This document shows, piece by piece, positions 43,081-64,000 of a stretch of DNA of 64,000 bases (position 1 is the stretch's first letter; every line of letters starts with the position of its first letter). The notes beneath the pieces were generated by a model. It had not been told where the DNA came from, made no database searches, and was given only the letters and a program-made list of their open reading frames with translations. This stretch comes from a virus. The stretch spans positions 55,900-119,899 of the IMG/VR virus record IMGVR_UViG_3300050821_017216; one strand, given 5' to 3'. The position numbers and the translations under genes are program-made.

Positions 43081-43364
43081 TGGGCAAGCGTAAGCGCTTC
43101 GCTCTGCGAGCTCTCCGTGCGGAACTAGGCAAAACGCAAACGGAGATCGCCTGCGCGGCGGCGATGGCTCAGGGTGAGGTCTCGAGACTCGAGTCGCGAC
43201 GCGACGTCAAGCTGTCGACCCTCGGTCGCTACGCTTCTGCGCTCGGTGGTGTGGTGGAGGTTGCCGTCGTCGTGGGGAAGCGTCGTTATCAGCTCGACCT
43301 AGACGTTACCCAGCCAAATACCGAGACGATCGCGGCCATGCGCGAAGCTGAAGGCTCTACCTAG
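43080..43364 (+). CDS. XRE-family HTH protein
   Basis: LRALRAELGKTQTEIA..QGEVSRLE..KLSTLGRYASALGG. Confidence 0.85.
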   Translation: MGKRKRFALRALRAELGKTQTEIACAAAMAQGEVSRLESRRDVKLSTLGRYASALGGVVEVAVVVGKRRYQLDLDVTQPNTETIAAMREAEGST

Positions 43365-43651
43365 GCGACGACGGTCCCGACGACGCCGCCGACGACCGCG
43401 GTGGCGACGAGCGGGCGCCAGTTGCGCCGCAGGCGCTGACCGGCGCCGACGAGGACGCCGGACCCCTCCCCGAAGAGGGCCGTCGCGGCGACGGCCGCGA
43501 CCGCGCTCATGGCCGCGCCGCCGAGGAAGGCGCCCACCTTGCCGGTCGGGAAGAGGCTCCCGCCCATGGCGGGCTTGACGAAGGTGCTCTGCGGCGCGAT
43601 CCCGACGCCGAACCCAACGGCCGGTCGGCCGCCCAGTCGTAGGTGCTCCAT
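43361..43651 (-). CDS. Small membrane protein with the GRP..FG[LV]G motif
   Basis: MEHLRLGGRPAVGFGVG, two hydrophobic helices. Confidence 0.7.
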   Translation of the reverse strand: MEHLRLGGRPAVGFGVGIAPQSTFVKPAMGGSLFPTGKVGAFLGGAAMSAVAAVAATALFGEGSGVLVGAGQRLRRNWRPLVATAVVGGVVGTVVA

Positions 43652-44295
43652 GCCGGTCAGCGTACGACGCTTCAGTCCTGCCGTCTACGCGGCTCGACTG
43701 CGAGCGACTGCCACCGCGACACCACCGACGACGACAACGACCGCGCCGCCGATGGCGAGCAGCGTAGGCCACGGCGACGGGACAGGCACGGTCGAGTCTA
43801 CCGGCGGCGCCGTCGCCGGCACCTGCGAAGGGCGACCACCACCCGACACGGGGATCGACGAAGCAGACGTCGGCAGCGACGCCGCGAGTTTGGATGCTTG
43901 CTGGTAGAAGGTGATCATCTGACCGATGATCGCCTTCGCGGCGTCCACGTCCGCCTGGGTGGCAGACCCCGAACTGTTGACGGCCGCGAGCTTGCCGTTC
44001 TGCTGCCACGCCCACTGCGTCATCTTCATGATGTCTGGACTGCCGCCGGACATGGCGTCGATGGCGGGACCCACGGCACCGACGGCGGCGTTGCCCGCGG
44101 CCTGCAGACCGGCGACCGCCCCGCTCGGGTTGGTGATCCCGGGACCGCCGTACTGCGCGACCGCGGCCTGAAGAGCCGCGATCCCAGGACCGATGGCGTC
44201 GGGAGCTCCCAACCCGAACCAGGGAACCGGTCGGCCACCGAACTGGAGGTTCATGCCGGTCATCGTACGGCGCTTCGGCTCTACCGTCTATGCGG
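43649..44295 (-). repeat. 44-nt duplicated promoter/start cassette (43649-43692, 44252-44295)
   Basis: 37/44 identical. Each reads TAGACG-17 nt-TACG(C/A)T-7 nt-ATG on the minus strand. Confidence 0.8.
43685..44254 (-). CDS. C-terminally anchored membrane protein with the motif
   Basis: MNLQFGGRPVPWFGLG, C-terminal TM. Start set by the duplicated cassette. Confidence 0.75.
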   Translation of the reverse strand: MNLQFGGRPVPWFGLGAPDAIGPGIAALQAAVAQYGGPGITNPSGAVAGLQAAGNAAVGAVGPAIDAMSGGSPDIMKMTQWAWQQNGKLAAVNSSGSATQADVDAAKAIIGQMITFYQQASKLAASLPTSASSIPVSGGGRPSQVPATAPPVDSTVPVPSPWPTLLAIGGAVVVVVGGVAVAVARSRAA

Positions 44296-44904
44296 TAGCG
44301 CCGCCGAGATCATCCGGGCGTACGGCGAGAGTACCGCGAGCACGACGACGCCGCCGACGGCGACACCGCCTACGATGAGCGCGGTCTTGTGCGCCTCGAT
44401 CCACTTGAGCAAGTCGAACGGGTTAGGGAGGTTTGACGGGTCCGTGGTCTTGTAGAAGGTCGAGTCCGCGTCGGACTGCAGCTGGTAAGGGAGGACGTAC
44501 GTAGGTTTCCAGCCCCCCGCGATGAGTCGGTTGCCGATGTCTTGTTTGCTCCCTCGGGTGACCTGATCGGCGACCGGCTGCAGCGCCGTGATGATGCCCT
44601 TGAAGGCCGCGTCCGTGCCCCCCGATACGGAGGTCGCCACCAGGCTGTCTGGCAGGAAAGAACTCCTACTGTCAGCGATGGCCTTGAGACCTGCGGCGCG
44701 CGCGGCCTGGTATGCCTTGTTGAGCGTTGCCCAGTCTTGTTGGATGCTCGGGTCGGTTGACTTCGCCACCTCGGTGGCCATCGCAGCCATCTCGACGTCC
44801 TTGTTCTTGATCAGCTGGTCGAGGTCCTCGACCGAGTAGACCCCGAGCACCGTACCGAGCGCGAACCCCTGGACCGGTCGACCGCCCCTGCAGATCGTAT
44901 CCAT
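44281..44904 (-). CDS. C-terminally anchored membrane protein with the motif
   Basis: MDTICRGGRPVQGFALG, TM ALIVGGVAVGGVVVLAVL. Confidence 0.75.
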   Translation of the reverse strand: MDTICRGGRPVQGFALGTVLGVYSVEDLDQLIKNKDVEMAAMATEVAKSTDPSIQQDWATLNKAYQAARAAGLKAIADSRSSFLPDSLVATSVSGGTDAAFKGIITALQPVADQVTRGSKQDIGNRLIAGGWKPTYVLPYQLQSDADSTFYKTTDPSNLPNPFDLLKWIEAHKTALIVGGVAVGGVVVLAVLSPYARMISAALPHRR

Positions 44905-45542
44905 CACCGCCGCCCCTTCCGCTTCTTGATCGCCCGCCAGATCTCGTCGAGCACCCAGCCGGTCACCGCGCCCGCGACGCTCATGACGACGGCCTCCTTC
45001 CATGGCGAGTGGCGCTCGTGCTCCTTAGGCGGATCCTTCGGAGCTTCCGCGCCGAGGCCCGCAGCCGCCTGCCCGCGCAGGAGCGCCGCCATCGCGCGCG
45101 CGGTGCGCTGCGTCGGCACGATCCCGCCGCCAGGCTCCGCGCAGCCGCCGCCCTCGACGAGCTCGTCCCCGCGCCCGGCGGCGATGAGCTGGTCCATCGC
45201 GGCGAGCTTCGCGCGGGCGTCCACCCAGGTCGGCGACCAGTGCGCGCCCACGCCGAGACTACCCTGCGTCTCGACGTCGCCGACCGCCTCGTATCGGACG
45301 GGCACCCCGTTGACCCGGTCGCCCACGATCATCCTGGCTATCGGGACGTGCTCGAGGCGCTGCACCTTGATGAGGATCGCGTCACCACCGCCCGGCGCGG
45401 ACGTGATCCCGACCCCTCGACCCCACGGCGGTCTGTCCAGGCGCACCCGTATTGAGTGCAGCGCCGCCTCGGCCTCGGACGGAGCGCCGAGCGCGAAGCC
45501 GACGACCGGTCGGCCGTTGCGGTGGACGGCGAAGCCCTGCAC
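44904..45542 (-). CDS. Membrane-associated protein with the motif
   Basis: VQGFAVHRNGRPVVGFALG, TAGGCT 7 nt before GTG 45542. Confidence 0.7.
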   Translation of the reverse strand: MQGFAVHRNGRPVVGFALGAPSEAEAALHSIRVRLDRPPWGRGVGITSAPGGGDAILIKVQRLEHVPIARMIVGDRVNGVPVRYEAVGDVETQGSLGVGAHWSPTWVDARAKLAAMDQLIAAGRGDELVEGGGCAEPGGGIVPTQRTARAMAALLRGQAAAGLGAEAPKDPPKEHERHSPWKEAVVMSVAGAVTGWVLDEIWRAIKKRKGRR

Positions 45543-45565
45543 GCGGCTCAGCCTACCACGGGTCG

Positions 45566-46098: not shown

Positions 46099-46551
46099 AT
46101 GGATCAAGCGCAACGTCACATGGCGGGGCTCGACCCCGAGCCGCGCACCATGGTGGACAACCGGGTGTGGTTCGGCAGCCGGCTCGCGCTCTGGCGCAGC
46201 AAGGTCGGCTGGGAGATCGCCGCCAAGCAGGCGGCCGAGATCGTCTCTCGCTGCTCTCACAAAGAGGGCTGCCCGGGCGAGTCGGTCGAGACCGAGCCGT
46301 GCCTACCCGGTTGCCCGGACCGCGAGATCCGGATGTCCGCGCTCGTTATCCTCAACGCCGCGCGCGACTTCACGCCGCCGAGCGCGAGCAAGCTCGCGCA
46401 GCAGCCGTACTCGGCGCCGAGCCGGGAGTATTTCTCGGCCGTCGTCGCGGAGCTCGCGGCCTGCCAGGCCGAGCTCCTCGTCCTGCGCGGGACCGTGGTC
46501 ACGATGCCACCCACCACCAACGAACCTCAACTCAAGGAGAAGTCCAAGTGA
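46099..46551 (+). CDS. Hypothetical protein
   Basis: 150 aa, GC3-biased. Confidence 0.7.
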   Translation: MDQAQRHMAGLDPEPRTMVDNRVWFGSRLALWRSKVGWEIAAKQAAEIVSRCSHKEGCPGESVETEPCLPGCPDREIRMSALVILNAARDFTPPSASKLAQQPYSAPSREYFSAVVAELAACQAELLVLRGTVVTMPPTTNEPQLKEKSK

Positions 46552-46943
46552 GCGTGAACTACGAACCCAGGCGCGGCCAGGCCGTCGGCCGCGTCGTCAT
46601 CAAGTCCACCCCCTCGACCATCGTGCGGCCGGACGAGACGAAGGGGACGACGAAGCTCGTCCTGCTCGACGCGGTCGGTCCTGACTTCGCGGAGAAGGGG
46701 CTGAAGGTCGGCGACGTGGTGCTGCCGTCGAAGGTCAGCAGCGTCGTGATGGAGGGCGGGGCCTCGTTTCGACCTGTCGTCAACGAGGCGGACGTCATCC
46801 TCGTCGTCCGCAACTGGACCAGCCTGAGCGAGTTCCGCGTGCAGACCGAGAGCGGCGCGGAGTACGTGGCGTTCGACGATCCGCGCGCCGCGCCGTCGCT
46901 CGGGTTCGTCAGCGAGTCACAACCCACGTCGGCGGCGGCGTGA
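46548..46943 (+). CDS. GroES/Cpn10-like protein
   Basis: P..G..V....IVRPD..VLLDAVG..LKVGDVVL..VVNEADVILVV, AAGGAG RBS. Confidence 0.55.
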   Translation: MSVNYEPRRGQAVGRVVIKSTPSTIVRPDETKGTTKLVLLDAVGPDFAEKGLKVGDVVLPSKVSSVVMEGGASFRPVVNEADVILVVRNWTSLSEFRVQTESGAEYVAFDDPRAAPSLGFVSESQPTSAAA

Positions 46944-47626
46944 TGGGCAGGAGCGCGTACGACCCTGCCGCCTTCGCCCGCCTGCGCGGGTGCGGGTGCC
47001 ACGCGCCGGCGCAGGCGCGGGTCGTCGCTGAGCGGACGGCGCGCGCCGGTCGACGTGGCCGGCGCCTACTGCGCGACGACACGCACGAGTCGGCGCTCGC
47101 GGGCGCCGGTGCGGACCCGATCGTCCTCGGCGCCGGCAACGGGTCGAAGTGCCGGCCGTTCCTGACCGTGCAGAAGGACCAGGAGCGGTTCAGCGCGTGC
47201 AACGCGCTCGCCGACAAGATCGGCCCGCTCGACTCGTCGGAGCGGGCGTTCGAGCTGATCAGCGAGGCCATCGGCGACGAGGTCAACGAGGTCTTCGGGA
47301 TCGTCACGCTCGACCTGCACCTGCGCATGAAGTCGGTCGCGGAGACCGGTCGCGGCGAGCCGTCCGCCGTCATGGCGCCCATGGTCCCGACGCTGCAGGC
47401 GGCGCTCATCGATGGCGCGCACGCTGTAATTCTCTGGCACTGTCACCCCTCCGGGGTCGAGGCCGAGCCGAGCGACGCGGACAAGGAGACGACCGAGGCG
47501 TTCGCGGATGCGTTCGAGATCGTCGGTGTCGGTCTACTTGATCACATCATTTTGGGAGGGTCCAAAGAGAAGCCGTCGTACTTCAGCTTCCTCGACGCGG
47601 GACTGCTTCCGGAACTCGAGGACTAG
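46940..47626 (+). CDS. RadC-like JAB/MPN domain protein
   Basis: HCHPSG..PSDAD..T..LLDHII. Confidence 0.85.
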   Translation: MMGRSAYDPAAFARLRGCGCHAPAQARVVAERTARAGRRGRRLLRDDTHESALAGAGADPIVLGAGNGSKCRPFLTVQKDQERFSACNALADKIGPLDSSERAFELISEAIGDEVNEVFGIVTLDLHLRMKSVAETGRGEPSAVMAPMVPTLQAALIDGAHAVILWHCHPSGVEAEPSDADKETTEAFADAFEIVGVGLLDHIILGGSKEKPSYFSFLDAGLLPELED

Positions 47627-47682: not shown

Positions 47683-48168
47683 ATGCCCAACAACCTCCCC
47701 CCGACCGTCGACCGCTCTATCCTCCCGGTGGAGCGGCAGCTACCCCAACCGAGCCCCGACGCGACCGTGCTGGTCCGGCTGGTCACCGACCAACTCAACC
47801 CCGAGGAGGTCAAGGTAGCGACGGACGCAAAGTCGCAGGTCCCGGTCTTCAACCAGACCGTGTGGATCCTGAACCAACCGCACCCGCTCGCGAGCGAGGC
47901 GAAGATCGTGCGGATGTACTCGCGCGACGACGGTGGGGTCGAGGTGTACTCGAGCGACGGCAAGATGTTCGTGAGGACGGTCCTGCCGGAGCGCGTGATC
48001 CGCTTCTTCGACGAGGCGATGTCCGACGAGACCTTCGTCGCGTTCATCGAGGAGGCCGAGAGCGAAGAGGAGGAGGAAGAGCCCGAGCCCGATCCGGAGC
48101 CCGGGCAGGAGCCCAACGCGGAGACAGACGCCGCGCCCGCCGCGAACGGCCCGAGCGCGGCCTCGTAA
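47683..48168 (+). CDS. Hypothetical protein with an acidic tail
   Basis: 161 aa, GC3-biased. Confidence 0.75.
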   Translation: MPNNLPPTVDRSILPVERQLPQPSPDATVLVRLVTDQLNPEEVKVATDAKSQVPVFNQTVWILNQPHPLASEAKIVRMYSRDDGGVEVYSSDGKMFVRTVLPERVIRFFDEAMSDETFVAFIEEAESEEEEEEPEPDPEPGQEPNAETDAAPAANGPSAAS

Positions 48169-48182
48169 GGGGACTCGAGACG

Positions 48183-50051
48183 ATGCCGGGCGACGAGGAA
48201 GACGAGGACGGTGTCGACCGCGACGAGGACGTCGTCGAAGACGACGGGGGTGACGACGATGGGGGTAACGACGACGGCGACGAGGGGAGCGACGCGGACA
48301 GGCACCCCACGACCGGTCAGCGACTCATCCCGCTCCCGCGTCGCCCACCACCCCAACCCACGAACGGTCCACCCGCGCGGGCTACGCGCCCAGCGCGGCC
48401 CGCAGTCGACGCAGCGCGCCGCCCTAGGCCGCGCCGCCCCAAGGCGCCCGAGAACGCAACGCCCGAACCCGCCGCGACCCAACCCGTGAACCAACCCCCT
48501 CCCCTCCCCCAAACGGCGCCGCCCGCGCCGACTGTCCCGACGGCTCCCGCCCGGACCGCGCACGACGGCAACGTGCTCCTCTCCTTCGAGGAGACGCTCA
48601 AGGTGTACCCGTCCGCCAACGCGACCATCTCCGTCGAGCGCCGGACCGGCGTGCCGGCGCAGTGGATGGTCACCACGCGACCGCGCACGGCCAACGAGCT
48701 CTACGAGGCGCTCAAGGCCCTGCACGGACGGAGCGGGGAGGCCACCTACGAGGTCGCCTTCCGCGACGGCGCCGGCCACGGGAGCGGCGGCTCGGTCTCG
48801 CTACCGAGCACACTCGACGCGCCTCCGGCGCCCGGGCAGCCCGTCGTGAGGCAGGAGTATCCCTACCCGTCGCAGGTAGCTTACGCGCAGCCGCAACCGG
48901 CCTCTCACTACGCGCCCCCTGCGCCTGCCCCGCAGGTCGCTCCGTCCGGCACGCCGTTCGAGGTGATGCTCGCGATGCAGAAGCAGGTGTTCGACATGGT
49001 GCAGTCGATGGCGCCGAAGCCCGTCGCCGCTCCGCCCGCGGCGCCCGCACCACCGGCGCAACCTCCGCCGCCCGCCGCGCCGGACATCAACGCGCTCCTC
49101 GCGATGCAGAAGCAGATGTTCGACATGGTGCAGTCGATGCAGCCGGGGCACGCGCAGCCGCCACCGCCGCCCCAACCGCAGCCAGCGCCCGCGTCGCCGC
49201 AGTCCGCCGGTCCGGTCGACCAGACCGCGGCGCTGCTCGCGATGCAGAAGCAGATGTTCGACATGATGCAGGCGATGCAGGCGACGGCCGCCGGGCACAC
49301 TCCGCCCACGTCGCCGCAGCCCACACCCGCAGCGCCGGCCACGGACCCGACCGGCGTGATGCTCGCGATGCAGAAGCAGACGTTCGACATGATGCTCCAG
49401 ATGATGCAGGCGACCCAGCGAGGGAGCGCGCCGCCGCCCGGCGGCGGGCCGTACACTGGGCCGTACCGACCGCGCGACCCGCGCGACGGTGGCGCGTCTG
49501 GCGCGCCGGCAACGCCGTACGCCTCACCGCACTACCAATCGCCTCAGCGCCCGCAGACGCCGTCCGAGCAGCTGCGCGACGCGGCCAACGTCTTCCGGTC
49601 GACCATGGAGGTCGCGCGCGAGTTCGGGTTCGCCGGGCAGACCGCCGAACCAGCGGCGACCTCGGTCGAGGAGGACGACACCCCCGTCCGCGTCATCGAC
49701 ATGGGGCTCGCCAAGGGCGTCATCAACCGGGACGACGGGAGGCTGCGCGGCGTCGAGACGTTCATGGCCAACCTGCCCGACATCCTCAAGTGGGTCGGCG
49801 ACCAGCGCGCGGAGATCAGGAAGGAGCGCGAGGCGAGCCGGCAGCGCGACCTGCAGCAGCAGTTGCCGCCCGGTTACGTCGTGGCGACGCCGGACTACCA
49901 GCCGCCCCCCGGGTTCGTCGCGGTCCCGGTCGACCAGATCCCGCAAGCCGCGCAGGAGACGCTGCCCGAGGCGCCGGAGGAGATGCCTCCCCCGCTCGCC
50001 GCCGAGAAGCCTCGGTCGACCTGGGGGATGCCGCCGACGAGGAGCGGCTGA
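48183..50051 (+). CDS. Pro-rich low-complexity protein with four LAMQKQxFDM repeats
   Basis: ATG at 48183 after the 48168 stop. Confidence 0.8.
   Translation: MPGDEEDEDGVDRDEDVVEDDGGDDDGGNDDGDEGSDADRHPTTGQRLIPLPRRPPPQPTNGPPARATRPARPAVDAARRPRPRRPKAPENATPEPAATQPVNQPPPLPQTAPPAPTVPTAPARTAHDGNVLLSFEETLKVYPSANATISVERRTGVPAQWMVTTRPRTANELYEALKALHGRSGEATYEVAFRDGAGHGSGGSVSLPSTLDAPPAPGQPVVRQEYPYPSQVAYAQPQPASHYAPPAPAPQVAPSGTPFEVMLAMQKQVFDMVQSMAPKPVAAPPAAPAPPAQPPPPAAPDINALLAMQKQMFDMVQSMQPGHAQPPPPPQPQPAPASPQSAGPVDQTAALLAMQKQMFDMMQAMQATAAGHTPPTSPQPTPAAPATDPTGVMLAMQKQTFDMMLQMMQATQRGSAPPPGGGPYTGPYRPRDPRDGGASGAPATPYASPHYQSPQRPQTPSEQLRDAANVFRSTMEVAREFGFAGQTAEPAATSVEEDDTPVRVIDMGLAKGVINRDDGRLRGVETFMANLPDILKWVGDQRAEIRKEREASRQRDLQQQLPPGYVVATPDYQPPPGFVAVPVDQIPQAAQETLPEAPEEMPPPLAAEKPRSTWGMPPTRSG
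48969..49394 (+). repeat. Four coding repeats CTCGCGATGCAGAAGCAG.(T/C)GTTCGACATG
   Basis: Seen directly, separated by Pro/Ala spacers. Confidence 0.9.
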
Positions 50052-50240: not shown

Positions 50241-50663
50241 GTGAACAAGAGAGATCCGGAAACTCTCGCGGAGATCGCGGAGGAGCGCGCCAGAGCCCGC
50301 GCGCGGCGGATCATGCGTGCGGTCATGCGGAAGAGCGTGTACTTCGGCGGCGAGAGCCGCGACAAGGTGCAGCGCGTACCGTTCCCAGGTGGCCTCGACG
50401 ACCCGCGTGCGTACCTCGTGGATCTGCTCGCGATAGCAGTTGGCGACACCCACGCGAGTGCTGTCGTGGACGCGCTCGACGTGTACCTGGAGACCGCTTC
50501 GGAGAACCGCACCCCGGCGTTTCAGTGGTCGCCACCCAACCGCGAGGTCGACCTAGTCCGCCAACGCGACGAGGCCCTCTCCCGTGCTGAGAGGGCCGAA
50601 CAGGCGCTGAAGGCCAAAACGAAGAAGAGGAAGCGGGCGACGACGCCGCAGCAAACTGCTTAG
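50241..50663 (+). CDS. Small protein carrying a copy of the capsid-candidate N-terminal peptide
   Basis: KSVYFGGESRDKVQRVPF. Confidence 0.7.
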   Translation: MNKRDPETLAEIAEERARARARRIMRAVMRKSVYFGGESRDKVQRVPFPGGLDDPRAYLVDLLAIAVGDTHASAVVDALDVYLETASENRTPAFQWSPPNREVDLVRQRDEALSRAERAEQALKAKTKKRKRATTPQQTA

Positions 50664-51821: not shown

Positions 51822-52489
51822 AAGTGATCGACAGGCCCGTAGAGGGCGTGACGACGGACGCGCGTCCGCACCCGGCCGGGCGAGAGGGGTCGCTCATCTC
51901 GCTCAACGAGGTGGCCGAGCGATCGTGGAAGTCCCGGATGTCGCCGCGCCTGCGCGCGTGGACGACGCAGCGCCTCGCCGAGGCCGGCGTCTCGACGGGG
52001 ACGCGCCGGCAGAAGGCGCAGGCGATCCTCGACGCGTTCCGCGCGAAGGTGCCGTACATCGCCGACCCGGTGATGGGCGAGTTCATGGAGACGCCAGAGC
52101 AGACGCTCTGCTTGGACGAGGGCGGCCTCTGCTTCATCGGCACCGACTGCGACGGTGCGGCGATCACGCTCATCGCGTGCATGCTCTGCATCGGGATCCC
52201 CGCGATGGTCATCGGCTCGTCGCACAAGGCGCCCCTCGACGTGCCGACGCACGTCTTCATGGCGTTCCAGGACGAGCAGAGCGAGTGGGTCCGTATGGAC
52301 GGCACGACGAAGCACCCGGTCGGTCGCGTCTCGCCTCACCAGCGCGAGTGGTGGGTCGAGCCTGGCGCGGAAGCGAAGAGCCGGGGCGAGGGCGACTTCG
52401 TGGGCATGGCCGGTGGCGCCGCGGTCGGCGTCGGCGGGTCGGTCGCGCGCGCGAGCGCGCTCGATCTCCTCTACCCGTCGATCAAGTAA
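51818..52489 (+). CDS. Transglutaminase-like (papain-fold) Cys protease candidate
   Basis: VPYIADP..E..TPEQTL..GTDCD..THVF..W..MDGT (Cys-His-Asp). Confidence 0.75.
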   Translation: MKVIDRPVEGVTTDARPHPAGREGSLISLNEVAERSWKSRMSPRLRAWTTQRLAEAGVSTGTRRQKAQAILDAFRAKVPYIADPVMGEFMETPEQTLCLDEGGLCFIGTDCDGAAITLIACMLCIGIPAMVIGSSHKAPLDVPTHVFMAFQDEQSEWVRMDGTTKHPVGRVSPHQREWWVEPGAEAKSRGEGDFVGMAGGAAVGVGGSVARASALDLLYPSIK

Positions 52490-55900: not shown

Positions 55901-56585
55901 GGCCGCGGTGCAGGCAGTCGCTGACCACGCCGCGCAGGTGGCGACCTCCGCACCGCCCGGAACGCCCCCGGCCGACGTCCACGCAGCCGCCACGCAGGCC
56001 GCGCAGTCGGTCGCCGCAGACGACCACCCCGCGGTCGCCAACCACCCCGCGGTGCAGGCAGCCATCCAGGCTGCAGCGACCGCAGCGACGGCGGCGGCTC
56101 CCGCCGCCAACGCCGCAGCCCCGGCACCTGCCGTGACCGCAGCCGCCACGCAGGCCGCGCAGTCGGCGGCCGCGCCCCACGCGGACGCCAACAAGCCCGC
56201 CGTCGCGGCTGCCGTCCAGGCAGCGGCGAACGGCGCCGCGCAGGCGGCGGCCGCCGCTCCCCCGGGGACGCCCACCGCGGTCGTCCAGCAAGCCGCCAAG
56301 GACGGTGCGCAGGCGGCAGCCGCCGCGCACGGTGCTGCCGCGGATCACCCCGCTGTCCAAGCCGCCGTCAAAGCTGCGGCGCCGGCAGCGGCGAACGCCG
56401 CCGCACCCGCGGCGGGGACCTCCGGTGTGGGTTTCCCGCCCCGGAACCTCCAGATCGGACCGACCAAGCTGCCGAAGCCTCAGGGCCCCCAGCCGCCGGA
56501 GTCCGACTGCGGCTGCCTGAACGACAGCCCGTACCTCGGCTTCGTCGGTGAGGAGGAGGAGACCGACCTCCTCTACACGAACTGA
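52968..56585 (+). CDS. Large multi-module putative core protein: histone H1-like K/R-rich region, two hydrophobic helices, duplicated helical domain, Ala/Pro tail
   Basis: 1205 aa, internal RBS plus ATG at 53442 (MAAKKKTTRR), AESRR repeats. Confidence 0.85.
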   Translation: MGAYKHRLAELSAARERVGRRTAGHRASASRRPVLAPRRAGAPARREVRIGTVIPSRYVPPPPPPPPPDYDPPPPSLDVEDRRKRSAMQTQSLLFSRAEGWTVEKAKVWAKKHGHKSNKVDVTDQYVRLRQLDPKGFQVKRTVPFGKGIRAVVAREETMAAKKKTTRRPAAKRTAARRKPAAKPKAPPKRRTAPKKSKPATTRVVSARRPARKVRASGRRATEARRPKKRAVRAQTKRTYARAKSKVAESRRPKKRAVSRKPSGQVMAKRKVRSTRSKGRRTVQAWHGDSAGHSKAAKKGWKTRKAGKPSKPSKASRTTKTAAESRRPKRRTTRETPRVAATRRPTKRTYARAKSKVAESRRPAKKRGSSRRVREATRVASPRSYRKSRVVRAPSLGSIARTAGQMGAEIGTAVAGYLIADGIDRFLATYDPSGTAKPANKFTSDGAGTLANALNVASPPDMWRYGALAAMTLVPLGGSLLAKNPMVRAGVEGIGLGAGVKLFTTLWSHVLMPMLVGKDTSVPALRKSWIARLYPAEVSASLNIKSGKADVSSGGATSTAGTLSGGSDRDAGPFALGDRFARGRGDRHDWVAPSPWPTAAVPAAPAYDPSIVDTSIPAPPVQPAWPARWGEHHRWGLRGVGDAVQDMTATIAAQTGVHPAHAVNAAMHAAAEPADLTQALQRALPHVNRDVLRETARHLHPHVVRMHLHSRYPREHGEWESERAGEGFPAPDHDAPEQEWREWHGKRAAAGLPQAPPPPEPPPLTPATPVHLRTRFEWQPKSGREITSDRYPTTQQVLGIGAPYASGNPGQPGLGEAFSDAVQTVAATVPDMPLENAVNATAFAAAEPCNLVRAFERAMPQIRRELARQCAVRVDPYIRTIHDQTGVPLPAAPGAPAAPAPGLPAAPPAVPGAPLSLAPLFKPSPPPPSWTRSEAEWHVQEKSDWDRSHASPVVVAAATQAAQAAAAPHPDADHPAVQAAVQAVADHAAQVATSAPPGTPPADVHAAATQAAQSVAADDHPAVANHPAVQAAIQAAATAATAAAPAANAAAPAPAVTAAATQAAQSAAAPHADANKPAVAAAVQAAANGAAQAAAAAPPGTPTAVVQQAAKDGAQAAAAAHGAAADHPAVQAAVKAAAPAAANAAAPAAGTSGVGFPPRNLQIGPTKLPKPQGPQPPESDCGCLNDSPYLGFVGEEEETDLLYTN
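53672..54056 (+). repeat. Perfect 55-nt coding repeat (53672-53726, 54002-54056)
   Basis: TKRTYARAKSKVAESRRP twice. Confidence 0.9.
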
Positions 56586-56700: not shown

Positions 56701-58020
56701 ATGGCTCGGAACCTTTTGACCAAGAAGTCGATCAAGTTCGGCGGCGAGAGCCGCGAGAAGGTGCAGCGCGTCCCGTTCGGCCTGGGCGCCCCGCCCGGCG
56801 ACGAGGCGGCCGCGCAGAAGTGCCTCCGGTGCGGGTTCGGCAACGTGCCCGTCGTCGAGGAGGTGGTCTGGACGATCCCGCTCCCGCTGACGCCCGAAGA
56901 GGCGCAGACGACGTTCGGCGACACCGTCAACCCGCTCTCGGGTTCCTCGGCAGTCCCCGGCGTCGCGAGCATCGACTCGACGTTCCTCATCAACGGCATC
57001 CTGCAGACGGACATCCTTGCCCAGGGCATCGGCGTCCACGTCTTCTGCGAGCCGATGACGTTCTCCACGATCGGCAACGCGTTCGTCGCGCCGGACGTTC
57101 AGGGATCGACCACCGCGAGCCCCGACGTGGTCACCTTTGCCGACGTGAACAACGGAGCACTCGGCGGGGACATGACGTTCGAGGCTCCCGCCGTCTTCGA
57201 GTGGGGCGCTGCGACCTGGCGCGCGGGCTGGAACTTCATCAACGCCTACCAGTTCCAGTGGAAGACATCCCAGCGCGAGCTCGTGCTCAACGAGCTGGCG
57301 GCCGACATCTCGTACTTCGGGTCCTTCGCGGACGCCGAGGCGAGCGGCACGAGCGAGCTGCCGATCGCCGAGTTCGTCGCGCTCGTCAACGCGACGTACC
57401 GCGCGAAAGACTCCGCCACGATCTTCGTCGGGGTCACCCACCGCAGGGTGGGTAGCGTCACCACCGCCGGCGGTGGTGGTGGTGGGCTCCCGCCCGCAAC
57501 CGGCAACGTCGGCATCTTCCACCCGACGCGCGACTTCGACCTCGCGCCCGTCACCTGGGGCGGTCTCCGGTGGCAGGGGTACGGATGCCGCGGGCAGATG
57601 TACCGGCCCGTCGAGAGCCCGTGCTTCCTCGAGCGCGGTATCCCGATCGGGATGATCTTCATCGCGCAGGACGCCGTGCACCAGGCGCAGATGATCGAGT
57701 CGCTCACGATCGACAACGAGCCGTTCGGCATCAACGTGCTGCCGGACATCAACATGAGCCAGTTGAGCTCGGTGGGGACTCCCGGAGTCATCGCGGCGGG
57801 TGCCGTCGGCAGCAGCGCCGCCAACCTCGTCATGCTCGAGCAGACGCTCGACTCGACGCCGGCGTACGCCACGACGGTCGTCAACACCAACCGCCAGGTC
57901 TTCAAGGGCGGCATCCTCAAGCTCGGGATCAAGATCAAGGGCTGGGAGATGCCGGGCGGCTGGAAGGCGTACTGCTCGGAGAAGGGCATCCGCGGCTTGC
58001 CCAAGCACAACGAGGGCTGA
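56701..58020 (+). CDS. Candidate major capsid protein, jelly-roll-like (large subunit)
   Basis: 439 aa, beta-rich, strongly biased codons, followed by a terminator. PCFLERGIPIGMIF..LGIKIKGWE resembles the terminal strands of single jelly rolls. Confidence 0.55.
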   Translation: MARNLLTKKSIKFGGESREKVQRVPFGLGAPPGDEAAAQKCLRCGFGNVPVVEEVVWTIPLPLTPEEAQTTFGDTVNPLSGSSAVPGVASIDSTFLINGILQTDILAQGIGVHVFCEPMTFSTIGNAFVAPDVQGSTTASPDVVTFADVNNGALGGDMTFEAPAVFEWGAATWRAGWNFINAYQFQWKTSQRELVLNELAADISYFGSFADAEASGTSELPIAEFVALVNATYRAKDSATIFVGVTHRRVGSVTTAGGGGGGLPPATGNVGIFHPTRDFDLAPVTWGGLRWQGYGCRGQMYRPVESPCFLERGIPIGMIFIAQDAVHQAQMIESLTIDNEPFGINVLPDINMSQLSSVGTPGVIAAGAVGSSAANLVMLEQTLDSTPAYATTVVNTNRQVFKGGILKLGIKIKGWEMPGGWKAYCSEKGIRGLPKHNEG

Positions 58021-58052
58021 TCGCGAGTCACCACTGAGTAGTGGTTGATTGG

Positions 58053-58095
58053 ACGGGCGGCGGTCGCGAGAGCGAGCCGCCGCCCGTTCTTTTTT
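58053..58095 (+). terminator. Rho-independent terminator
   Basis: 15-bp GC stem with one bulge, GAGA tetraloop, TCTTTTTT tail. Confidence 0.85.
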
Positions 58096-58115
58096 GAGGT
58101 ACTCTGGAGGACGTC

Positions 58116-58715
58116 ATGCAGCCGAAAAGCGAGAACGTAAGCGACCTGGCCATCTGGGCCCCGAAGATCGCCTACGCGATGGTGGTGGGCGTCCCGCGCG
58201 TCCCGTTCGTCGTCGACATCCCGATCCAGTTCACCTCGAGCGCCGTCGACGCGCCCGCGATCGTCGCGAGCTTCGACAACAACCTCACGCAGGACACGAT
58301 CATCGAGAAGATCGCGTTCACGCTCTTCCAGCAGAACACGTTCCCCGGCAGCCCGTTCCAGAGCCTGTACTTCAGCCAGCTGAAGAACCAGACCGGCGTC
58401 GGCGTCAAGGTCGACGTCTACGGAGCTCCCAGGTACAGCGTGCAGGATACACACATCGACCTCGCGAACTTCGCCGACGTCATGGCGGTCACGTGGCCGA
58501 ACGGGTGGCTTTTGCCAAAACAAAGTAACGTGAAATTGTCGGCGATCCTGTTCCAGACGCCGGTGAGCGTCCCGTTCAACGTCAACGTCACATTTTTGGG
58601 GTGGAGCTCGCTAGATCCCGACATTGACGGACTCTCCGATGATGACGCGCGCTGCCGGCTCCGCAAACTCGGCTTCGACGTCCCGGACCTGTCGATCCTA
58701 CTGGCCAGGCCGTGA
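58116..58715 (+). CDS. Candidate second capsid protein, single jelly-roll-like (small subunit)
   Basis: 199 aa, alternating beta pattern, WLLPKQSNVKLS..NVNVTFLGW. Confidence 0.55.
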   Translation: MQPKSENVSDLAIWAPKIAYAMVVGVPRVPFVVDIPIQFTSSAVDAPAIVASFDNNLTQDTIIEKIAFTLFQQNTFPGSPFQSLYFSQLKNQTGVGVKVDVYGAPRYSVQDTHIDLANFADVMAVTWPNGWLLPKQSNVKLSAILFQTPVSVPFNVNVTFLGWSSLDPDIDGLSDDDARCRLRKLGFDVPDLSILLARP

Positions 58716-58773: not shown

Positions 58774-59679
58774 ATGCGCTGGAACAACGAGGCGAAGCTC
58801 ATCAGGCTGGCCAGCTACCCCGGCGGCGTCGCCGAGGGCGTCCGCACGCGCTTCTACCCAGGTCGCCACGAGATCGTCCCCGCCACGATCGACCCTTCCG
58901 TCGCGCTCATCGGCAGCGACCCCTTCCTCGGCACGTCGGTCGGTACGGGCCTGCTCGTCCCATCGACACCGACCGCGGCGCTCGTCCCCGCCGGAGCGTC
59001 CCCGTCCGAGTACCGCTACCTCTGCCTGCTCGCCCGCGAGCAGTTCGCCTCGGGCGAGACCGGCGTGCGGCTCACCGGCATCCGGCAGTACGCGGAGCTC
59101 GTCGCGACCGTCTCTGGCGTGGGGACGTTCCGCAAGGAGATCGTGAGCCCGCTCTGGCACCCGCCGGACGGGAACATCAGCTGGCACGTCGTCATCATCG
59201 CGAAAAACTTCATCCTGACCCGAAACGTCCAGAACGCGGACACCCTCATGTTCCGCGACAGCAAGGGACCGGCGCTGCTCTACGAGACCTTCGCAGGTCC
59301 GCAGTTCGCGCCGACCGCGTACGTGCCGCCGAACGGCGGCCGCCCGTGGGGCAAGCCCCTCGGCAGCAGCCTCGGCAACATGCACGACATGCGCTACCGC
59401 TGGCGCACCGGCTACCTCGAGCAGATGCTCGACATCCCGGTGCCGGTGCCGTGTGACGTCGCCATCGTCGCGAGCGTCCGGCAGAACGATCCGGCGACCA
59501 ACCCGGCCGCGAGCGGCCTGTCGGCCAACCAGTTCGCGGCGCTCGGCCCTGAAGACCAGTTCCTGACGGCGTACCCGGGCGCCGCCGGCGTGGGCGCGCA
59601 GTACGGTCGGATTGCCGCGTCGCTCGTCTTCAGCGAGACTTCCAGGGATCCCGTGCTGGTCGAGGAGGATGCATCATGA
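58774..59679 (+). CDS. Beta-rich structural-type protein (minor capsid/vertex candidate)
   Basis: About 301 aa, TGATG start, directly after the capsid candidates. Confidence 0.6.
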   Translation: MRWNNEAKLIRLASYPGGVAEGVRTRFYPGRHEIVPATIDPSVALIGSDPFLGTSVGTGLLVPSTPTAALVPAGASPSEYRYLCLLAREQFASGETGVRLTGIRQYAELVATVSGVGTFRKEIVSPLWHPPDGNISWHVVIIAKNFILTRNVQNADTLMFRDSKGPALLYETFAGPQFAPTAYVPPNGGRPWGKPLGSSLGNMHDMRYRWRTGYLEQMLDIPVPVPCDVAIVASVRQNDPATNPAASGLSANQFAALGPEDQFLTAYPGAAGVGAQYGRIAASLVFSETSRDPVLVEEDAS

Positions 59680-60536
59680 CAACCGGAGTCGGAGGGTGCG
59701 GTGGAGGGTGCGGGAACGCCGCGTGGGCGGTGGTCCCCGCTCGGCGCGTCCTCGATCGGTTGTCGCCGACCCCGGCGCAGGCCGCCGACATCGCGCACCG
59801 CGACGGGACCTACCAAGACTGGGTCACCGACGTACCGGTCCAGGGCCCCACGGACCCCGGGATCCGCGCGGCTGGTTGCTGGTGGAAGGAGAACGTCCTC
59901 GACAAGGTCACCGACCGGCAGGGCGCTGTCGTGCCGCGGTGGACTCAGTCCTCCACGCTCTGCATGGGGGGTCGACCCGTGAGGACCGGCGTCGCCGGTC
60001 TCGGCGAGACGATCCAGATGCACCTCGGCCCGAACCCGACGCTGACGCCGAAACCTGCGGCAGGATCGCCGCCCAACGGCGCCGCGAGCGCGCCACCTGG
60101 CGTCTGGTCCAAGCTCGCCGCCGCCGAGTCGAGCTGGGTGATGACCACCCTCACGCAGTTGAACGCGCTCATCCTCAAGGCCGGCAACAAGCCCTGCGCG
60201 ACCTGGCCGGCGGACCCGACCAAGGCTGTCCCAGCGGCGGTCGCGTGCTTCCAGGGATGGTTCAACGCAAACGGCAAGCCGGCCGAGCCGCTGCGCACCG
60301 ACGGCTCGCTCGACGAGGCGAGCCTCTGCGCGCTCGTGGCGGTCACCAAGCAGCACGCGGGCGACTTCACGGTCCCGTACCCCGGATCGCCGAACTGCGG
60401 CGGGGGTCTCTCCACCCTCGCGAAGGTCGGCATCGGTGTCGGCGCCCTGGTGGTGGTCGGTGGGACGATCGCGGCTGTCGCCGCGCACGGCAAGAAGAAG
60501 ACGCGGACGCCGCCTGCGGCGAGCCCTCAGGGCTGA
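59676..60536 (+). CDS. Membrane-anchored protein with a peptidoglycan-binding-like segment
   Basis: FQGWFN..LRTDGSLDEASL, C-terminal TM, GGRPVRTGVAGLG. Confidence 0.7.
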   Translation: MTTGVGGCGGGCGNAAWAVVPARRVLDRLSPTPAQAADIAHRDGTYQDWVTDVPVQGPTDPGIRAAGCWWKENVLDKVTDRQGAVVPRWTQSSTLCMGGRPVRTGVAGLGETIQMHLGPNPTLTPKPAAGSPPNGAASAPPGVWSKLAAAESSWVMTTLTQLNALILKAGNKPCATWPADPTKAVPAAVACFQGWFNANGKPAEPLRTDGSLDEASLCALVAVTKQHAGDFTVPYPGSPNCGGGLSTLAKVGIGVGALVVVGGTIAAVAAHGKKKTRTPPAASPQG

Positions 60537-60549
60537 GGGTGGAGTTGCG

Positions 60550-61485
60550 ATGTACGTCAGATCCTGGGAGGATGTCGCCCCGCCGGGCGTAGGCGCCGCC
60601 GACAACAGCGCGCCCGCACCCGTCAAGATCTCGACGGTCATCGCGGCCATCCGTCAGGCGGCCAAGGAGAAAGGGTTCGACCTGTCCGACCAGCTGCTCT
60701 CGCTGATGATCGGGCAGATCCGCGGCGCGGAGGGGGCCTACCCTGGCTCCGGGAGCACGTTCGCGGGCACCAACAACATCGGTGCTGCCCAGGTCACCAA
60801 GGGGCTCGTGAGCGCGAAGAAGGGTCGCCCCGGTTGGGGCGCGTTCGCGCACAAGGACACGACCCCGACCGCCAGTGGACCAAGCCCGTACATCGGGTGG
60901 TACTGGATCGCCCCGAGCCCACTCGAGGCCGCGCGCCACTGGTTTCAGGATAACTGGTGGGGGCCGGCGCTCGCGAAAGCCAACCCGCAGACCGCGACGG
61001 ACTACGCGGGCGTCGTCTACAAGGGACACTACTTCGACGGCAACCACCCGGACCCGGATCACGATCCCACGAGCGACAACGGGAAGCTGAACGTCGCCGA
61101 GTACGCGGCCGGGATCCAGCGCGGTGTGGCGTCGGCCGCGGAGTTGGCCGCGCCAGTCGATGACCCCGCGAAGGTGACCGTCGACCCAGCCAAGTTCAAG
61201 CCACCGGCGGCCCGGCAGATCACCGAGGACCTGTTCACCAAAGCCAAGAGCGGTGGTGCCGGATCCGCGTGGTCCTACATCTTGCCGAGCTCGTGGAGCG
61301 ATCTCCTCGCCTCGAACGGTGTCGTGTGGTTCGACGGGTCCATACCTGGATCGAGTCTCGCGCGTCTTGTCCGGAGACCGATCGTGGTCGCGGCGGTCGC
61401 GGCAGTAGTCGTCGTGATCGGTGGCGGTGTCTACTTGGTTACGAAACCAGTGCGGCGGCATGCGCCGGCCCCGGCCCGAGCATGA
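60550..61485 (+). CDS. Membrane-anchored glucosaminidase/FlgJ-like (GH73-like) hydrolase candidate
   Basis: GAEG..TNNIGA..SPLEAARHW..AL..A..YAGVVYKGHY, C-terminal TM. Confidence 0.55.
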   Translation: MYVRSWEDVAPPGVGAADNSAPAPVKISTVIAAIRQAAKEKGFDLSDQLLSLMIGQIRGAEGAYPGSGSTFAGTNNIGAAQVTKGLVSAKKGRPGWGAFAHKDTTPTASGPSPYIGWYWIAPSPLEAARHWFQDNWWGPALAKANPQTATDYAGVVYKGHYFDGNHPDPDHDPTSDNGKLNVAEYAAGIQRGVASAAELAAPVDDPAKVTVDPAKFKPPAARQITEDLFTKAKSGGAGSAWSYILPSSWSDLLASNGVVWFDGSIPGSSLARLVRRPIVVAAVAAVVVVIGGGVYLVTKPVRRHAPAPARA

Positions 61486-61817
61486 GACTCCGAGCGGAGT
61501 CCATCTCGCTCGCCGGTCGCCCGACGGCTGGTTTCGGGCTGGGCCAGCCGGGTGCGTGCCCGGTGTGCCCCGCGGCGCTCCCGTCCGGATCCAGCGCGGC
61601 TGATCTCCTAGACGGCGACTGGAGCGCGCTGCCCGCTGTCGCGGGCTACACCCTCGCGCGCGCCGCGCTCGTCGGGTCGGGCCTCCTCGTCGCGGGCGAG
61701 CGCACGCACGTGGTCAGGAACGCGGTCGCCGGCGCGCTCGCGATCGAGGTCTTCGTGCTCGCGTGGGCCGCGTGGAAGAAAAGGATCCGTGACAGAGTAG
61801 GAGCGACACAGCCATGA
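61482..61817 (+). CDS. Small membrane protein with the motif
   Basis: LAGRPTAGFGLG, two hydrophobic helices. Confidence 0.7.
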   Translation: MRLRAESISLAGRPTAGFGLGQPGACPVCPAALPSGSSAADLLDGDWSALPAVAGYTLARAALVGSGLLVAGERTHVVRNAVAGALAIEVFVLAWAAWKKRIRDRVGATQP

Positions 61818-62500
61818 ACACCGTATCCAGGGGCGGCCGCCCGGTCGCGTTCGGCGTGGGTGACCTGTTCCCGATCCCAATCGACAGGCGTCCCGCGCCG
61901 CCGCCCGCCCAGGTCAGGCGCCCCGCGCCGCCGCCTCCCCAGGTCGGCAGGCGCCCTGCGCCCCCGCCGCCCCAGGTGAGGCGCCCCACGCCACCGTCGC
62001 CCCGCGCGGTGGCCCACGAGGCAGCCGCCGCGCGTGCGTGGCGGCCTGAGTGGGGTGGACGCCCCGCGGGCTTCGGCGCCACCCACTGGCGCCCCGAGTG
62101 GGGCAGCCAACCCGCTTGGTTCGGCGCTCGCCAGTGGAGGCGTGAGTGGGGCGCGCAACCTCCGTGGTGGGAGGCGAGCGTCGCCGTGCAGCAGACCGCG
62201 CCGCCCGACGATCCGCCGGACGACTCCCAGCCGCCCGCGCCCTCGGACGGCGCGACCCAGGCTCCGCCGCCAGCGAGCGGCGCACCGGCTACGCCGACGG
62301 ACTCCACGGCAGCGGCAGCGGCAGCGGCATCGGCGACGACGCCGACGCCGACCACGGGCCCGGCGAGCGCGGGGGCGCCCGCGGCCGGCGGTAGCAAGTC
62401 CCTCTCTACCCTCGCGAAGGTCGGCATCGGCGCCGGCGTCGTGGTGGTCGTCGGTGGCACCGTCGCGGTCATCCTCCAGGCGGCGAGCAGCAAGAAGTAG
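61814..62500 (+). CDS. Pro-rich C-terminally anchored protein with the motif
   Basis: RGGRPVAFGVG, WRPEWG repeats, TM LSTLAKVGIGAGVVVVVGG (same as in the 59676 protein). Confidence 0.75.
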   Translation: MNTVSRGGRPVAFGVGDLFPIPIDRRPAPPPAQVRRPAPPPPQVGRRPAPPPPQVRRPTPPSPRAVAHEAAAARAWRPEWGGRPAGFGATHWRPEWGSQPAWFGARQWRREWGAQPPWWEASVAVQQTAPPDDPPDDSQPPAPSDGATQAPPPASGAPATPTDSTAAAAAAASATTPTPTTGPASAGAPAAGGSKSLSTLAKVGIGAGVVVVVGGTVAVILQAASSKK

Positions 62501-62513
62501 GAGCACCACCCCC

Positions 62514-63998
62514 ATGAGCAAGATCTTCAGGAACGGGCGCCCCGCCACGTTCGGTGTGGGCGAGAACTTCTGCCCGACCCTCCCGTACAACTGCCCGCCG
62601 CGCCCGTGGGAGCCGGATCCCGGTCCCGAGACCTCGATCCGCGACCGCCTCGGCACCGGCCGACCGCAGTCGAGCGGCGTGGGTGTGTCTGGGCTCGCGT
62701 GCTGGCCGCGCGAGTGGAAGCCGGACGAGGGGCAGACGCTCGGCATCGGCGGGCGCCCGCGGCGTGGCTCGCAGTTCGGCGTCGGCGGATCGCCGTACGC
62801 GGACTCGCTCGCCGCCGTCGGCCTGACGCCGGACAACCCGGACCCGATGTACGCGCAGCTCATGGACTTCATCCAGAACCCAGAAAAGTTCAAGAACGCG
62901 GACCCGTGCTGGCCTGGCGCGAAGGACGACAAGACGTGGTGGGAGGACCCGAAGGGCACGATCGCGCTTCAGTGGCCGTTCGGCGGCGGCAAGTGGCTCG
63001 ACAACGCGCCGAAGACCGACGCGCAGATGCGCGCCGTGTTCAAGATCCCGGACGGCACTGCGACCAAGGACTTCCTCTACCAGCTCTACGGGGTCACGAG
63101 CCCTCTCACGACGTTCCGCATCGACGCCAAGGGTCACAAGTGCAAGAGCGGCGGGTTCGACCTCGGTAGCGCGCTCGGGAAAGCCTGGGACGCCGTGAAG
63201 ACGGGGATCGGTGACGTGCGCGCGGTCGCCGACGCTCTCCACATCCCAGGCGCAAACCTGACCGCAGCGCTCCTGACCGGTGGCGACCTCGGCGAGGCGC
63301 TCAAGCAGGACGTCAACGGCTTCGTCGCCGCCGGCCAGCTCGCGGGGGCCATCGTCAGTGGCAACCCGTCCGGGATCGCTGCCGCCGCCACGTCGAGTAT
63401 CACCCAGGCCGCGCAGAAGTTCGGGATCAGTATCCCCTCCGGCGCGGTGCAGGCGGCCGCGCAGGTGGCGCAGACGGTGAGCGCGGCCGGCGGCGACCCG
63501 TCGCAGATCCTGACCCAGGCCGCGCAGCAGGCTGGCTCCACGACCCCGGCGGCCGCGATCCAGTCCGCCGTCAGCGCGATCAAGTCCGACGCCAGCCCGG
63601 ACCAGATCCTGAGCCAGCTCCCCGGAATGCCGGCGAGCGCGGTCCAGGCCGCGATCGTGGCGGCGCGCGCCGGCGGTGACCCGAGCAAGCTCGCGAACCT
63701 CGTCGCGACGACGGCGCTCGGCGACAGCTACAAGGACGCCTGGAACGTCGCGACCAACTTCGGCAAGATCAAGACGGACATGCCGGCGCCGGTGGGTCTG
63801 TCGTACGCGCCCGGGGCCAAGCCGGCCAGCTCCGCCAACCCGCACCCGATCCAGGTGCACCTAGGCGGCAAGTCGCTGACCGTGAAGGGTGGCGGCGCGT
63901 ACGGCCCCTACCCCGACAGCGGCAAGGTGTCGGCGGCACCAGCCGCCGCCGGGACGACCGCGGGCGTCGGCAACCTCGATCGCGGTGGCGGTGGGGGT
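62514..63998 (+). CDS. Large Ala/Gly-rich structural-type protein, runs off the right edge
   Basis: Frame read by hand: MSKIFRNGRPATFGVG.., with GRPQSSGVG and GGRPRRGSQFGVG. No stop to the window end. Confidence 0.8.
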   Translation, partial: MSKIFRNGRPATFGVGENFCPTLPYNCPPRPWEPDPGPETSIRDRLGTGRPQSSGVGVSGLACWPREWKPDEGQTLGIGGRPRRGSQFGVGGSPYADSLAAVGLTPDNPDPMYAQLMDFIQNPEKFKNADPCWPGAKDDKTWWEDPKGTIALQWPFGGGKWLDNAPKTDAQMRAVFKIPDGTATKDFLYQLYGVTSPLTTFRIDAKGHKCKSGGFDLGSALGKAWDAVKTGIGDVRAVADALHIPGANLTAALLTGGDLGEALKQDVNGFVAAGQLAGAIVSGNPSGIAAAATSSITQAAQKFGISIPSGAVQAAAQVAQTVSAAGGDPSQILTQAAQQAGSTTPAAAIQSAVSAIKSDASPDQILSQLPGMPASAVQAAIVAARAGGDPSKLANLVATTALGDSYKDAWNVATNFGKIKTDMPAPVGLSYAPGAKPASSANPHPIQVHLGGKSLTVKGGGAYGPYPDSGKVSAAPAAAGTTAGVGNLDRGGGGG

Positions 63999-64000
63999 CA

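Follow-up and report, generated by a model that had tools for sequence, protein, structure and literature searches.

To our knowledge, tailless phages built with a jelly-roll capsid and a membrane have genomes of 10-44 kb, and large genomes among bacterial viruses are found only in tailed phages. PRD1 and PR772 (Tectiviridae) and STIV (Turriviridae) contain an internal membrane, and in double-jelly-roll viruses the genes of the major capsid protein (MCP) and of the penton are commonly adjacent. In the Helvetiavirae the gene of the small MCP precedes that of the large one and adjoins the ATPase gene, and SPV1 (Portogloboviridae) has no packaging ATPase, its genome being condensed inside the lipid layer by a basic protein. 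In the present study we analysed a window of 64 kb, the last part (55900-119899) of the single 119,899-bp contig that forms the IMG/VR virus record IMGVR_UViG_3300050821_017216. We concentrated on window positions 43361-64000 (coordinates are those of the window unless the contig is named), where an initial annotation had proposed a giant non-tailed, membrane-containing virus with two single-jelly-roll capsid proteins. We propose that the stretch at 46.1-64 kb, together with genes at 43.4-45.5 kb whose products start with a common tag, is the morphogenesis module of a large tailless jelly-roll virus of soil bacteria, probably with a membrane, and we put the probability of this reading at roughly two in three. 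A jelly-roll virus of ~120 kb would be about three times the size of the largest cultured phage of such build.

The proposal centres on two adjacent genes of the same strand, the terminator between them and the gene that follows:

56701-58020, + strand: P0001, candidate MCP of 439 amino acids (aa), with a predicted jelly-roll core, its strands spread over residues ~50-415, and additional beta structure.
58051-58095, + strand: predicted intrinsic terminator after the P0001 gene, with a 17-bp stem, one bulge, a GAGA loop and a U6 tail.
58116-58715, + strand: P0002, putative second jelly-roll capsid protein (small MCP or penton) of 199 aa, assigned from its structural model.
58774-59679, + strand: P0003, conserved soluble protein of 301 aa, directly after P0002 in 31/31 related loci.

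The beta-rich character ascribed earlier to P0001 and P0002 is borne out by confident AlphaFold models, and both open reading frames (ORFs) are of coding type (GC content at third codon positions, GC3, of 0.88-0.92). The model of P0001, built from 74 diverse homologues, is beta-rich with ~18 strands and few helices (predicted local distance difference test, pLDDT, 83.6; predicted template-modelling score, pTM, 0.81), and that of P0002, also beta-rich, shows an eight-strand jelly roll at residues 27-166 (pLDDT 80.4, pTM 0.71). As predictions, these scores settle the fold class of the two proteins and not their function. The capsid proteins of PRD1, PR772, STIV, SGIV, vaccinia (D13), SPV1, SH1, HHIV-2, HCIV-1 and P23-77 figure among their structural neighbours or head the list; the matches to VP16/VP17, SH1, HHIV-2 and HCIV-1 have Z scores of 4.8-6.7, and no HK97-fold match occurs among the neighbours of either protein. 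Profiles of P0001 and P0002 searched against all PDB sequences gave no capsid match at E <= 10, and neither did a single-sequence search. The giant non-tailed jelly-roll virus of the initial annotation is supported in its folds and in the absence of HK97 and tail genes, but not by any sequence similarity to solved capsid proteins. ESM Atlas was uninformative for P0001 and P0003 (models of pLDDT ~0.25, feature scores <=0.82, TM scores <=0.3), and the 34 matches of P0002 in BFVD at E <= 0.001 are almost all unnamed proteins.

The build of the shell can be read in two ways, which we consider about equally likely. Nearly all of the dozens of single-domain jelly-roll targets span P0001 residues ~50-415, yet they align only 92-120 residues, so that the first and last strands would belong to one sandwich with ~200 residues of further beta structure inserted between them. 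This suggests a shell of the Helvetiavirae type, with P0001 as a large single-jelly-roll MCP carrying a tower, P0002 as the small MCP, both in pseudo-hexameric capsomers, and P0003 as the penton, a model that we hold only tentatively. P0002 is conserved almost like P0001, which is unusual for a penton, and P0003 is less conserved. Furthermore, SSIP-1, the only cultured virus found to have a virion gene in common with this family, has, according to a review (PMC6356626), a PRD1-type architecture with two MCP types. Against such a shell, P0001 and P0002 resemble neither each other nor solved capsid proteins, the large gene comes first here and without an adjacent ATPase gene, the reverse of the Helvetiavirae arrangement, and an FtsK/HerA ATPase is not conserved.

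In a second look at the structural matches of P0001, the best nine were all double-jelly-roll MCPs (PR772 and PRD1 P3, STIV, SGIV and vaccinia D13), with 120-162 residues aligned, above any single-barrel target. Together with a length of 439 aa, which is the size of PRD1 P3 or PBCV-1 Vp54, with the ~18 strands, and with a helix placed after a strand in each half (H170-182 and H325-335), these matches would make P0001 a trimeric MCP of the Bamfordvirae type and P0002 a single-jelly-roll penton, as in PRD1, STIV and PM2; the adjacency of the two genes is also as common in such viruses. This version, too, is tentative: the PRD1 and SGIV alignments take in one target barrel only (chain residues 20-253 and 268-463), hhalign revealed no similarity between the profiles of the two P0001 halves, and P0002 is as strongly conserved as the MCP.

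The similar terminal strand patterns noted earlier in both proteins were not substantiated: hhalign detected no sequence homology, and the match of their C-terminal strands (...KGWE / ...LGWS) covers 30 columns at a probability of 1.5% (E = 0.034), not above chance. A predicted complex of P0001 and P0002 gave an interaction score (ipSAE) of 0.00 in two runs without controls, which is evidence neither for nor against binding. P0003 has no family match in searches of the Pfam and PHROGs type, and neither it nor the 286-aa protein encoded next to it showed a relationship to the others in hhalign.

The strong terminator reported after the first gene was confirmed, the hairpin at 58051-58095 having a folding energy of -36.7 kcal/mol (z = -6.2) that none of 200 shuffled sequences equalled; a simple terminator scan had missed it. 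The MCP gene was found in 31 related IMG/VR loci, all classed as viral by IMG/VR, in which a nine-gene order is kept (RadC-like protein, 622-aa protein, 370-aa protein, transglutaminase-like protein, basic core protein, MCP, 199-aa protein, 301-aa protein, 286-aa protein), including two loci with an MCP identity of only 44%; the loci that lack one of the nine genes are mostly short or cut contigs. In comparison with three whole relatives, the best-conserved genes are those of the MCP (62-76% identity) and the 199-aa protein (57-73%), most others being unmatched. More widely, homologues of P0001 number more than 391 (67-87% identity), lie on contigs of up to 252 kb and form 167 clusters at the 50% level, and those of P0002 number 521, often listed with longest contigs of the same lengths. 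The contig itself is classed 'linear' by IMG/VR with a CheckV completeness estimate of 100, and four relatives carry direct terminal repeats (G002, 124.6 kb; G004, 116.3 kb; G007, 111.5 kb; G009, 85.6 kb). In the two relatives examined these repeats measure 87 and 127 bp, compatible with a circular or circularly permuted genome.

The initial annotation had recognised no terminase, portal, sheath or tape measure, and this holds throughout. PHROGs searches of 150 ORFs of at least 70 aa returned no capsid, portal, terminase, sheath, tube or tape-measure family, and Pfam searches of 74 window ORFs plus selected others returned no hallmark family of tailed phages. Six-frame searches with PF03237 (Terminase_6N) and PF01580 (FtsK_SpoIIIE) were negative in the whole contig, as were those with PF03354 (TerL_ATPase), PF04860 (Phage_portal) and PF05065 (Phage_capsid) in five genomes, namely this contig and four relatives, two of which have terminal repeats; the search for terminase and portal genes outside the window, suggested at the outset, thus ended without a find. 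Of the proteins of at least 400 aa, only an SNF2 helicase, the MCP and a pair of ~620-aa proteins (the pair by partial matches) have counterparts in each of the three genomes compared, which leaves no candidate for a large terminase or a portal.

It is very unlikely, in our view, that the locus belongs to a highly divergent tailed phage whose HK97 protein, portal and terminase were all missed and whose jelly rolls are decoration, receptor-binding or baseplate parts. Such domains are common in tail fibres and baseplates, and non-capsid jelly rolls do appear among the structural matches (the fibre of Agrobacterium phage 7-7-1 and the baseplates of phi812 and phage KP1); the replication half of the contig uses typical phage families, and terminal repeats of 87-127 bp would fit. 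Nevertheless, no hallmark family appeared in the 150 ORFs or in the six-frame searches of five genomes, only a helicase and P0001 are conserved at full length among the large proteins of the compared genomes, and the most conserved, terminator-followed gene encodes a jelly-roll protein in a position typical of a major capsid protein. The remaining argument for a tailed phage comes from one ATPase in the left part of the contig:

Contig 14073-15791, - strand: ATPase of the HerA/FtsK superfamily, 572-651 aa depending on the start, between the ThyX and ParB genes.

An ATPase of FtsK/HerA type, which had been suggested as something to look for elsewhere on the contig, is present, but among replication genes and at full length in only 5 of 11 related genomes (G000, G002, G007, G009 and G010); it is absent from G004, which has terminal repeats. 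Its assignment is supported by weak Pfam matches (DUF87, HerA_C, TrwB), by phrog_2666 (E = 2.6e-18) and by HerA chains in the PDB (E ~1e-8), while its C-terminal ~250-320 residues are uncharacterised. One PHROG matching it is labelled 'terminase large subunit' (phrog_2666 was touched), which speaks for the tailed-phage alternative; its patchy distribution and the lack of any nuclease domain match speak against it. For its patchiness and its place in the replication module we also rejected it as the core packaging motor, and it could serve replication, defence or counter-defence. Other proteins with a Walker A motif that were checked in G002, G004 and G005 are a helicase, a primase-polymerase and a UvrD-type helicase. 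The family appears to be without a conserved packaging ATPase.

What we observe at this locus, besides the missing tailed-phage families and the patchy HerA-like ATPase, are the folds, the gene order and its conservation. The rest of the putative particle module is arranged as follows:

43361-45542, - strand: four tagged proteins of 96, 192, 207 and 212 aa, three with a predicted membrane segment.
46120-46943, + strand: two small proteins of 143 and 131 aa upstream of the RadC-like gene, conserved in G002, G004 and G005.
46943-47626, + strand: RadC-like protein with a JAB (JAMM) metalloprotease fold (Pfam RadC, E = 9.2e-23 in a search of the window's proteins; HxHPSG...PSxxD motif).
48183-50051, + strand: Pro-rich protein of 622 aa with an acidic N-terminus, upstream in 24/31 loci.
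50709-51821, + strand: predicted tail-anchored protein of 370 aa, a core gene, with its segment at residues 329-347; conserved in 28/31 loci.
51818-52489, + strand: transglutaminase-like Cys-His-Asp protein (Pfam Transglut_core, E = 7.5e-5).
52968-56585, + strand: basic 'core' protein of 1205 aa, directly upstream of the MCP gene in 27/31 loci.
59676-60536, + strand: predicted tail-anchored membrane protein of 286 aa, a core gene, with its segment at residues 243-261; matched in 29/31 loci.
60550-61485, + strand: predicted tail-anchored membrane protein of 311 aa, with its segment at residues 270-288; found in the closest relative only.
61482-63998, + strand: three tagged proteins of 111, 228 and >495 aa, the last running off the contig end, found by motif scan.
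25331-40269, - strand: five spike- or fibre-like proteins of 503, 359, 140, 242 and 409 aa, found by motif scan.

The core protein recognised in the initial annotation is indeed present, and consists of a very basic stretch followed by hydrophobic segments: it has a net charge of +89, with 32-37 Arg plus Lys per 100 residues across residues 101-400, as in protamines or histone H1, then hydrophobic segments at ~400-520 and an Ala-rich C-terminal half. Membrane proteins were found as well, eight being predicted in 43361-64000 instead of the 'about ten' first counted, with the segment mostly near the C-terminus. The spikes proved to be five proteins lying at 25331-40269, outside the region to which they had been assigned; they start with a 12-residue tag, [IVLM]-G-[RK]-[GN]-R-x3-E-x-Y-P, which also occurs in relatives G005 and, by tblastn, G004. 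A different tag, G-R-P-x(2-4)-F-[GA]-[LV]-G, starts seven proteins, the four at 43361-45542 and the three at 61482-63998, and is found in G002 and G004 too. In P0001 the tag [RK]-x-hydrophobic-G-hydrophobic-G takes the form R-V-P-F-G-L-G at residues 23-29, and 70 of 74 family members retain its G-x-G core, even at identities as low as 22%. A 140-aa protein encoded at 50241-50663 (+ strand) contains a near copy of this N-terminal leader (FGGESR-D/E-KVQRVPF); it is not conserved in relatives, and its sole match in a related locus (L004) is the N-terminus of the MCP. The RadC-like gene occupies the first position of the conserved block and is conserved in 19/31 loci. The 622-aa protein has a poly-acidic N-terminus, linkers rich in Pro and an amphipathic repeat, LLAMQKQ-x-FDM-x-QSM, that occurs four times, and to judge from these sequence features it may be scaffold-like or membrane-shaping.

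Our inferences concern the shell as such, the presence of a membrane, how the genome is loaded and what the tags do. The 439-aa protein would be the major capsid protein, with a jelly-roll core and additional beta structure, and the 199-aa protein a further jelly-roll component of the shell (small MCP or penton). The membrane of the virus would be populated by the tail-anchored proteins. The 1205-aa protein, in which a protamine-like region is joined to hydrophobic segments, may condense the genome and tie the DNA to the membrane. Because no packaging ATPase is conserved across the family, we suggest that condensation and co-assembly enclose the genome, the mode proposed for SPV1, and that it is not pumped into a preformed shell. 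The tag common to the MCP and the membrane proteins, like the G-R-G-R-x3-E-x-Y-P tag of the spike-like proteins, may act as an assembly or cleavage signal, the transglutaminase-like Cys-His-Asp protein and the RadC/JAMM protein being candidate processing enzymes. In its full form the proposal describes an undescribed high-rank lineage of tailless jelly-roll viruses with an internal membrane and genomes of 86-125 kb, widespread in soil and peat, in which DNA is enclosed without a motor by means of a membrane-tethered protamine-like protein and virion proteins are sorted or processed through tags; for this whole combination the odds fall a little short of even.

Several points weigh against a tailless jelly-roll virus. 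No particle, lipid or host has been observed. Foldseek searches of P0001 against the PDB and BFVD returned nothing at E <= 0.001, only weak rows (papillomavirus L1 and capsids of small viruses) whose TM scores are meaningless. The absence of hallmarks comes from profile searches, which are able to miss very divergent members. Across the 31 loci, no Walker A protein of at least 100 aa is encountered repeatedly at up to 10 kb from the MCP gene, and the missing motor leaves the loading of a 120-kb genome unexplained. No terminal repeat was found on the 119.9-kb contig, whose last gene is cut by the contig end. In favour of the proposal, as a weak hint only, contigs identical to the window occur in soil metatranscriptome libraries of two other studies. 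In both libraries they extend over the 3' half of the MCP gene (57269-58022 and 57427-58015), one library also containing eight further pieces of the module; such contigs can neither prove transcription nor rank genes. One of these RNA-library contigs ends two bases beyond the MCP stop codon, before the terminator hairpin.

The contig has a GC content of ~68%, and a gene call by codon bias gave 179 ORFs; genes run off both edges of the window, as had been stated, and no tRNA genes were found. Its left 56 kb are devoted to replication and nucleotide metabolism and contain ordinary families of phage type (ThyX, Dam methylase, ParB, Sak4-like AAA_24, PD-(D/E)XK nuclease, SNF2-type helicase and a DnaB-type helicase domain). 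An exact direct repeat of 98 bp joins contig 1-98 to contig 30061-30158, the latter within a gene-poor stretch (29.4-32.1 kb). The left half also encodes the following protein:

Contig 47940-50012, - strand: Cas12f-like protein of 690 aa, with a Cas12f1-like TNB domain (Pfam, E = 2.8e-9).

This gene adjoins a gene-free stretch at ~45.1-47.9 kb of the contig, and a homologue with 32% identity is present in G002. The right 64 kb, that is, the window, are almost blank to Pfam and PHROGs, the few family matches being an intein-bearing UvrD helicase, toxin-antitoxin genes, the RadC-like JAB protein, a weak transglutaminase core and a weak glycoside-hydrolase-like domain. The UvrD-type helicase (435-2903, + strand; PHROG DNA helicase, E = 8.6e-76) is split by an intein with a DUF559/MTES_1575 endonuclease domain found by Pfam. 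The toxin-antitoxin-type genes at 13730-14460, 24144-24796 and 42535-43080 match Fic/Doc, MazE-like, BrnT and AbiEii nucleotidyltransferase families, which were placed on the ORFs by means of N-terminal sequences.

Genes of this kind are typical of plasmids too. ParB, a HerA/TrwB-like ATPase, the toxin-antitoxin pairs and a CRISPR array accompanied by a Cas12-like gene would, together with the lack of a recognisable packaging motor, suit a large plasmid or mobile element in which jelly-roll and membrane proteins act at the cell surface, in vesicles or in transfer. We regard this non-viral origin as quite improbable, and slightly more so than a tailed phage. IMG/VR calls this record and all 31 relatives viral, no conjugation, relaxase or plasmid replication-initiator family is among the Pfam and PHROGs matches, and the locus is organised like a late operon, in which a structural gene is strongly conserved and a terminator is present. 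In addition, a homologue of a proven virion protein of SSIP-1 is encoded in the module.

As for habitat and host, the best DNA match to the window is a soil metagenome, possibly the source sample. The MCP occurs on three contigs of metagenome-assembled genomes (MAGs), two from a Binatia MAG and one from a Polyangiaceae MAG; all three hold only viral genes, in the same order, and the presence of the MCP there thus shows binning and not integration. The Myxococcota host proposed at the outset has only the one Polyangiaceae contig in its favour, a contig of viral genes alone, and is at most a candidate. The claim of an undescribed large lineage was supported: among 50,697 GenBank phage records P0001 had no tblastn match, a description of the lineage was not found in the literature searched, and in IMG/VR the family is only an unnamed viral contig. 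That it is unnamed in IMG/VR and unmatched in the GenBank phage collection suggests that marker-based pipelines systematically leave this family unnamed.

If the proposal is true, these would be by far the largest prokaryotic viruses that combine a jelly-roll capsid with an internal membrane, and a lineage of 86-125 kb would widen the size range of prokaryotic jelly-roll capsids about threefold. It would raise a concrete question, namely how 120 kb of DNA are enclosed in the absence of a motor, and would provide a new capsid protein family to be placed against the single- and double-jelly-roll lineages.

Compared with described viruses, the Helvetiavirae and Halopanivirales (SH1, HHIV-2, HCIV-1 and the Thermus phages P23-77 and IN93) are alike in having adjacent genes for a large and a small jelly-roll shell protein and many small membrane proteins in the same module. 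They differ in showing no sequence homology to this family through VP4/VP7 or VP16/VP17, in the order of the MCP genes, which is reversed (large before small here), in a packaging FtsK/HerA ATPase that belongs to their morphogenesis module and has no conserved equivalent here, and in genomes of 16-31 kb against 86-125 kb. Without sequence homology or a conserved ATPase, and with a genome four to seven times larger, membership in the Halopanivirales is not supported. The Bamfordvirae PRD1/PR772 and STIV likewise have an ATPase, of A32/FtsK type, none being conserved here, and the present genome is roughly 7-8 times those of prokaryotic double-jelly-roll viruses of that group.

The membrane-containing tailless phage SSIP-1 has in common with this family a transglutaminase-like virion protein, gp34, annotated as structural, to which the protein encoded at 51818-52489 is homologous (family profile E = 8.9e-11; BLASTP E = 4e-6, with the DCDG, H and D residues aligned); by sequence comparison this is the only link found to a cultured virus. 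The late module of SSIP-1 is likewise rich in structural proteins of unknown family, and profiles of the MCP, the 199-aa and the 301-aa protein gave nothing below E = 0.05 against its proteins (hmmsearch, hhalign). SSIP-1 differs in having a virion ATPase of AAA_25 type, gp40, of which no counterpart was found here (the Sak4-like ATPase was considered and rejected, not being similar to gp40), and in its hypersaline pond as opposed to soil, and the genome analysed here is ~2.7 times that of SSIP-1. SPV1 differs in its archaeal host, its 20-kb genome and the absence of sequence similarity; it offers, by analogy, a parallel in genome loading, in that a basic, hydrophobic 1205-aa protein is combined here with a missing motor. 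The nearest cultured virus is thus SSIP-1 when judged by a common gene, and SPV1 when judged by the proposed mode of genome loading.

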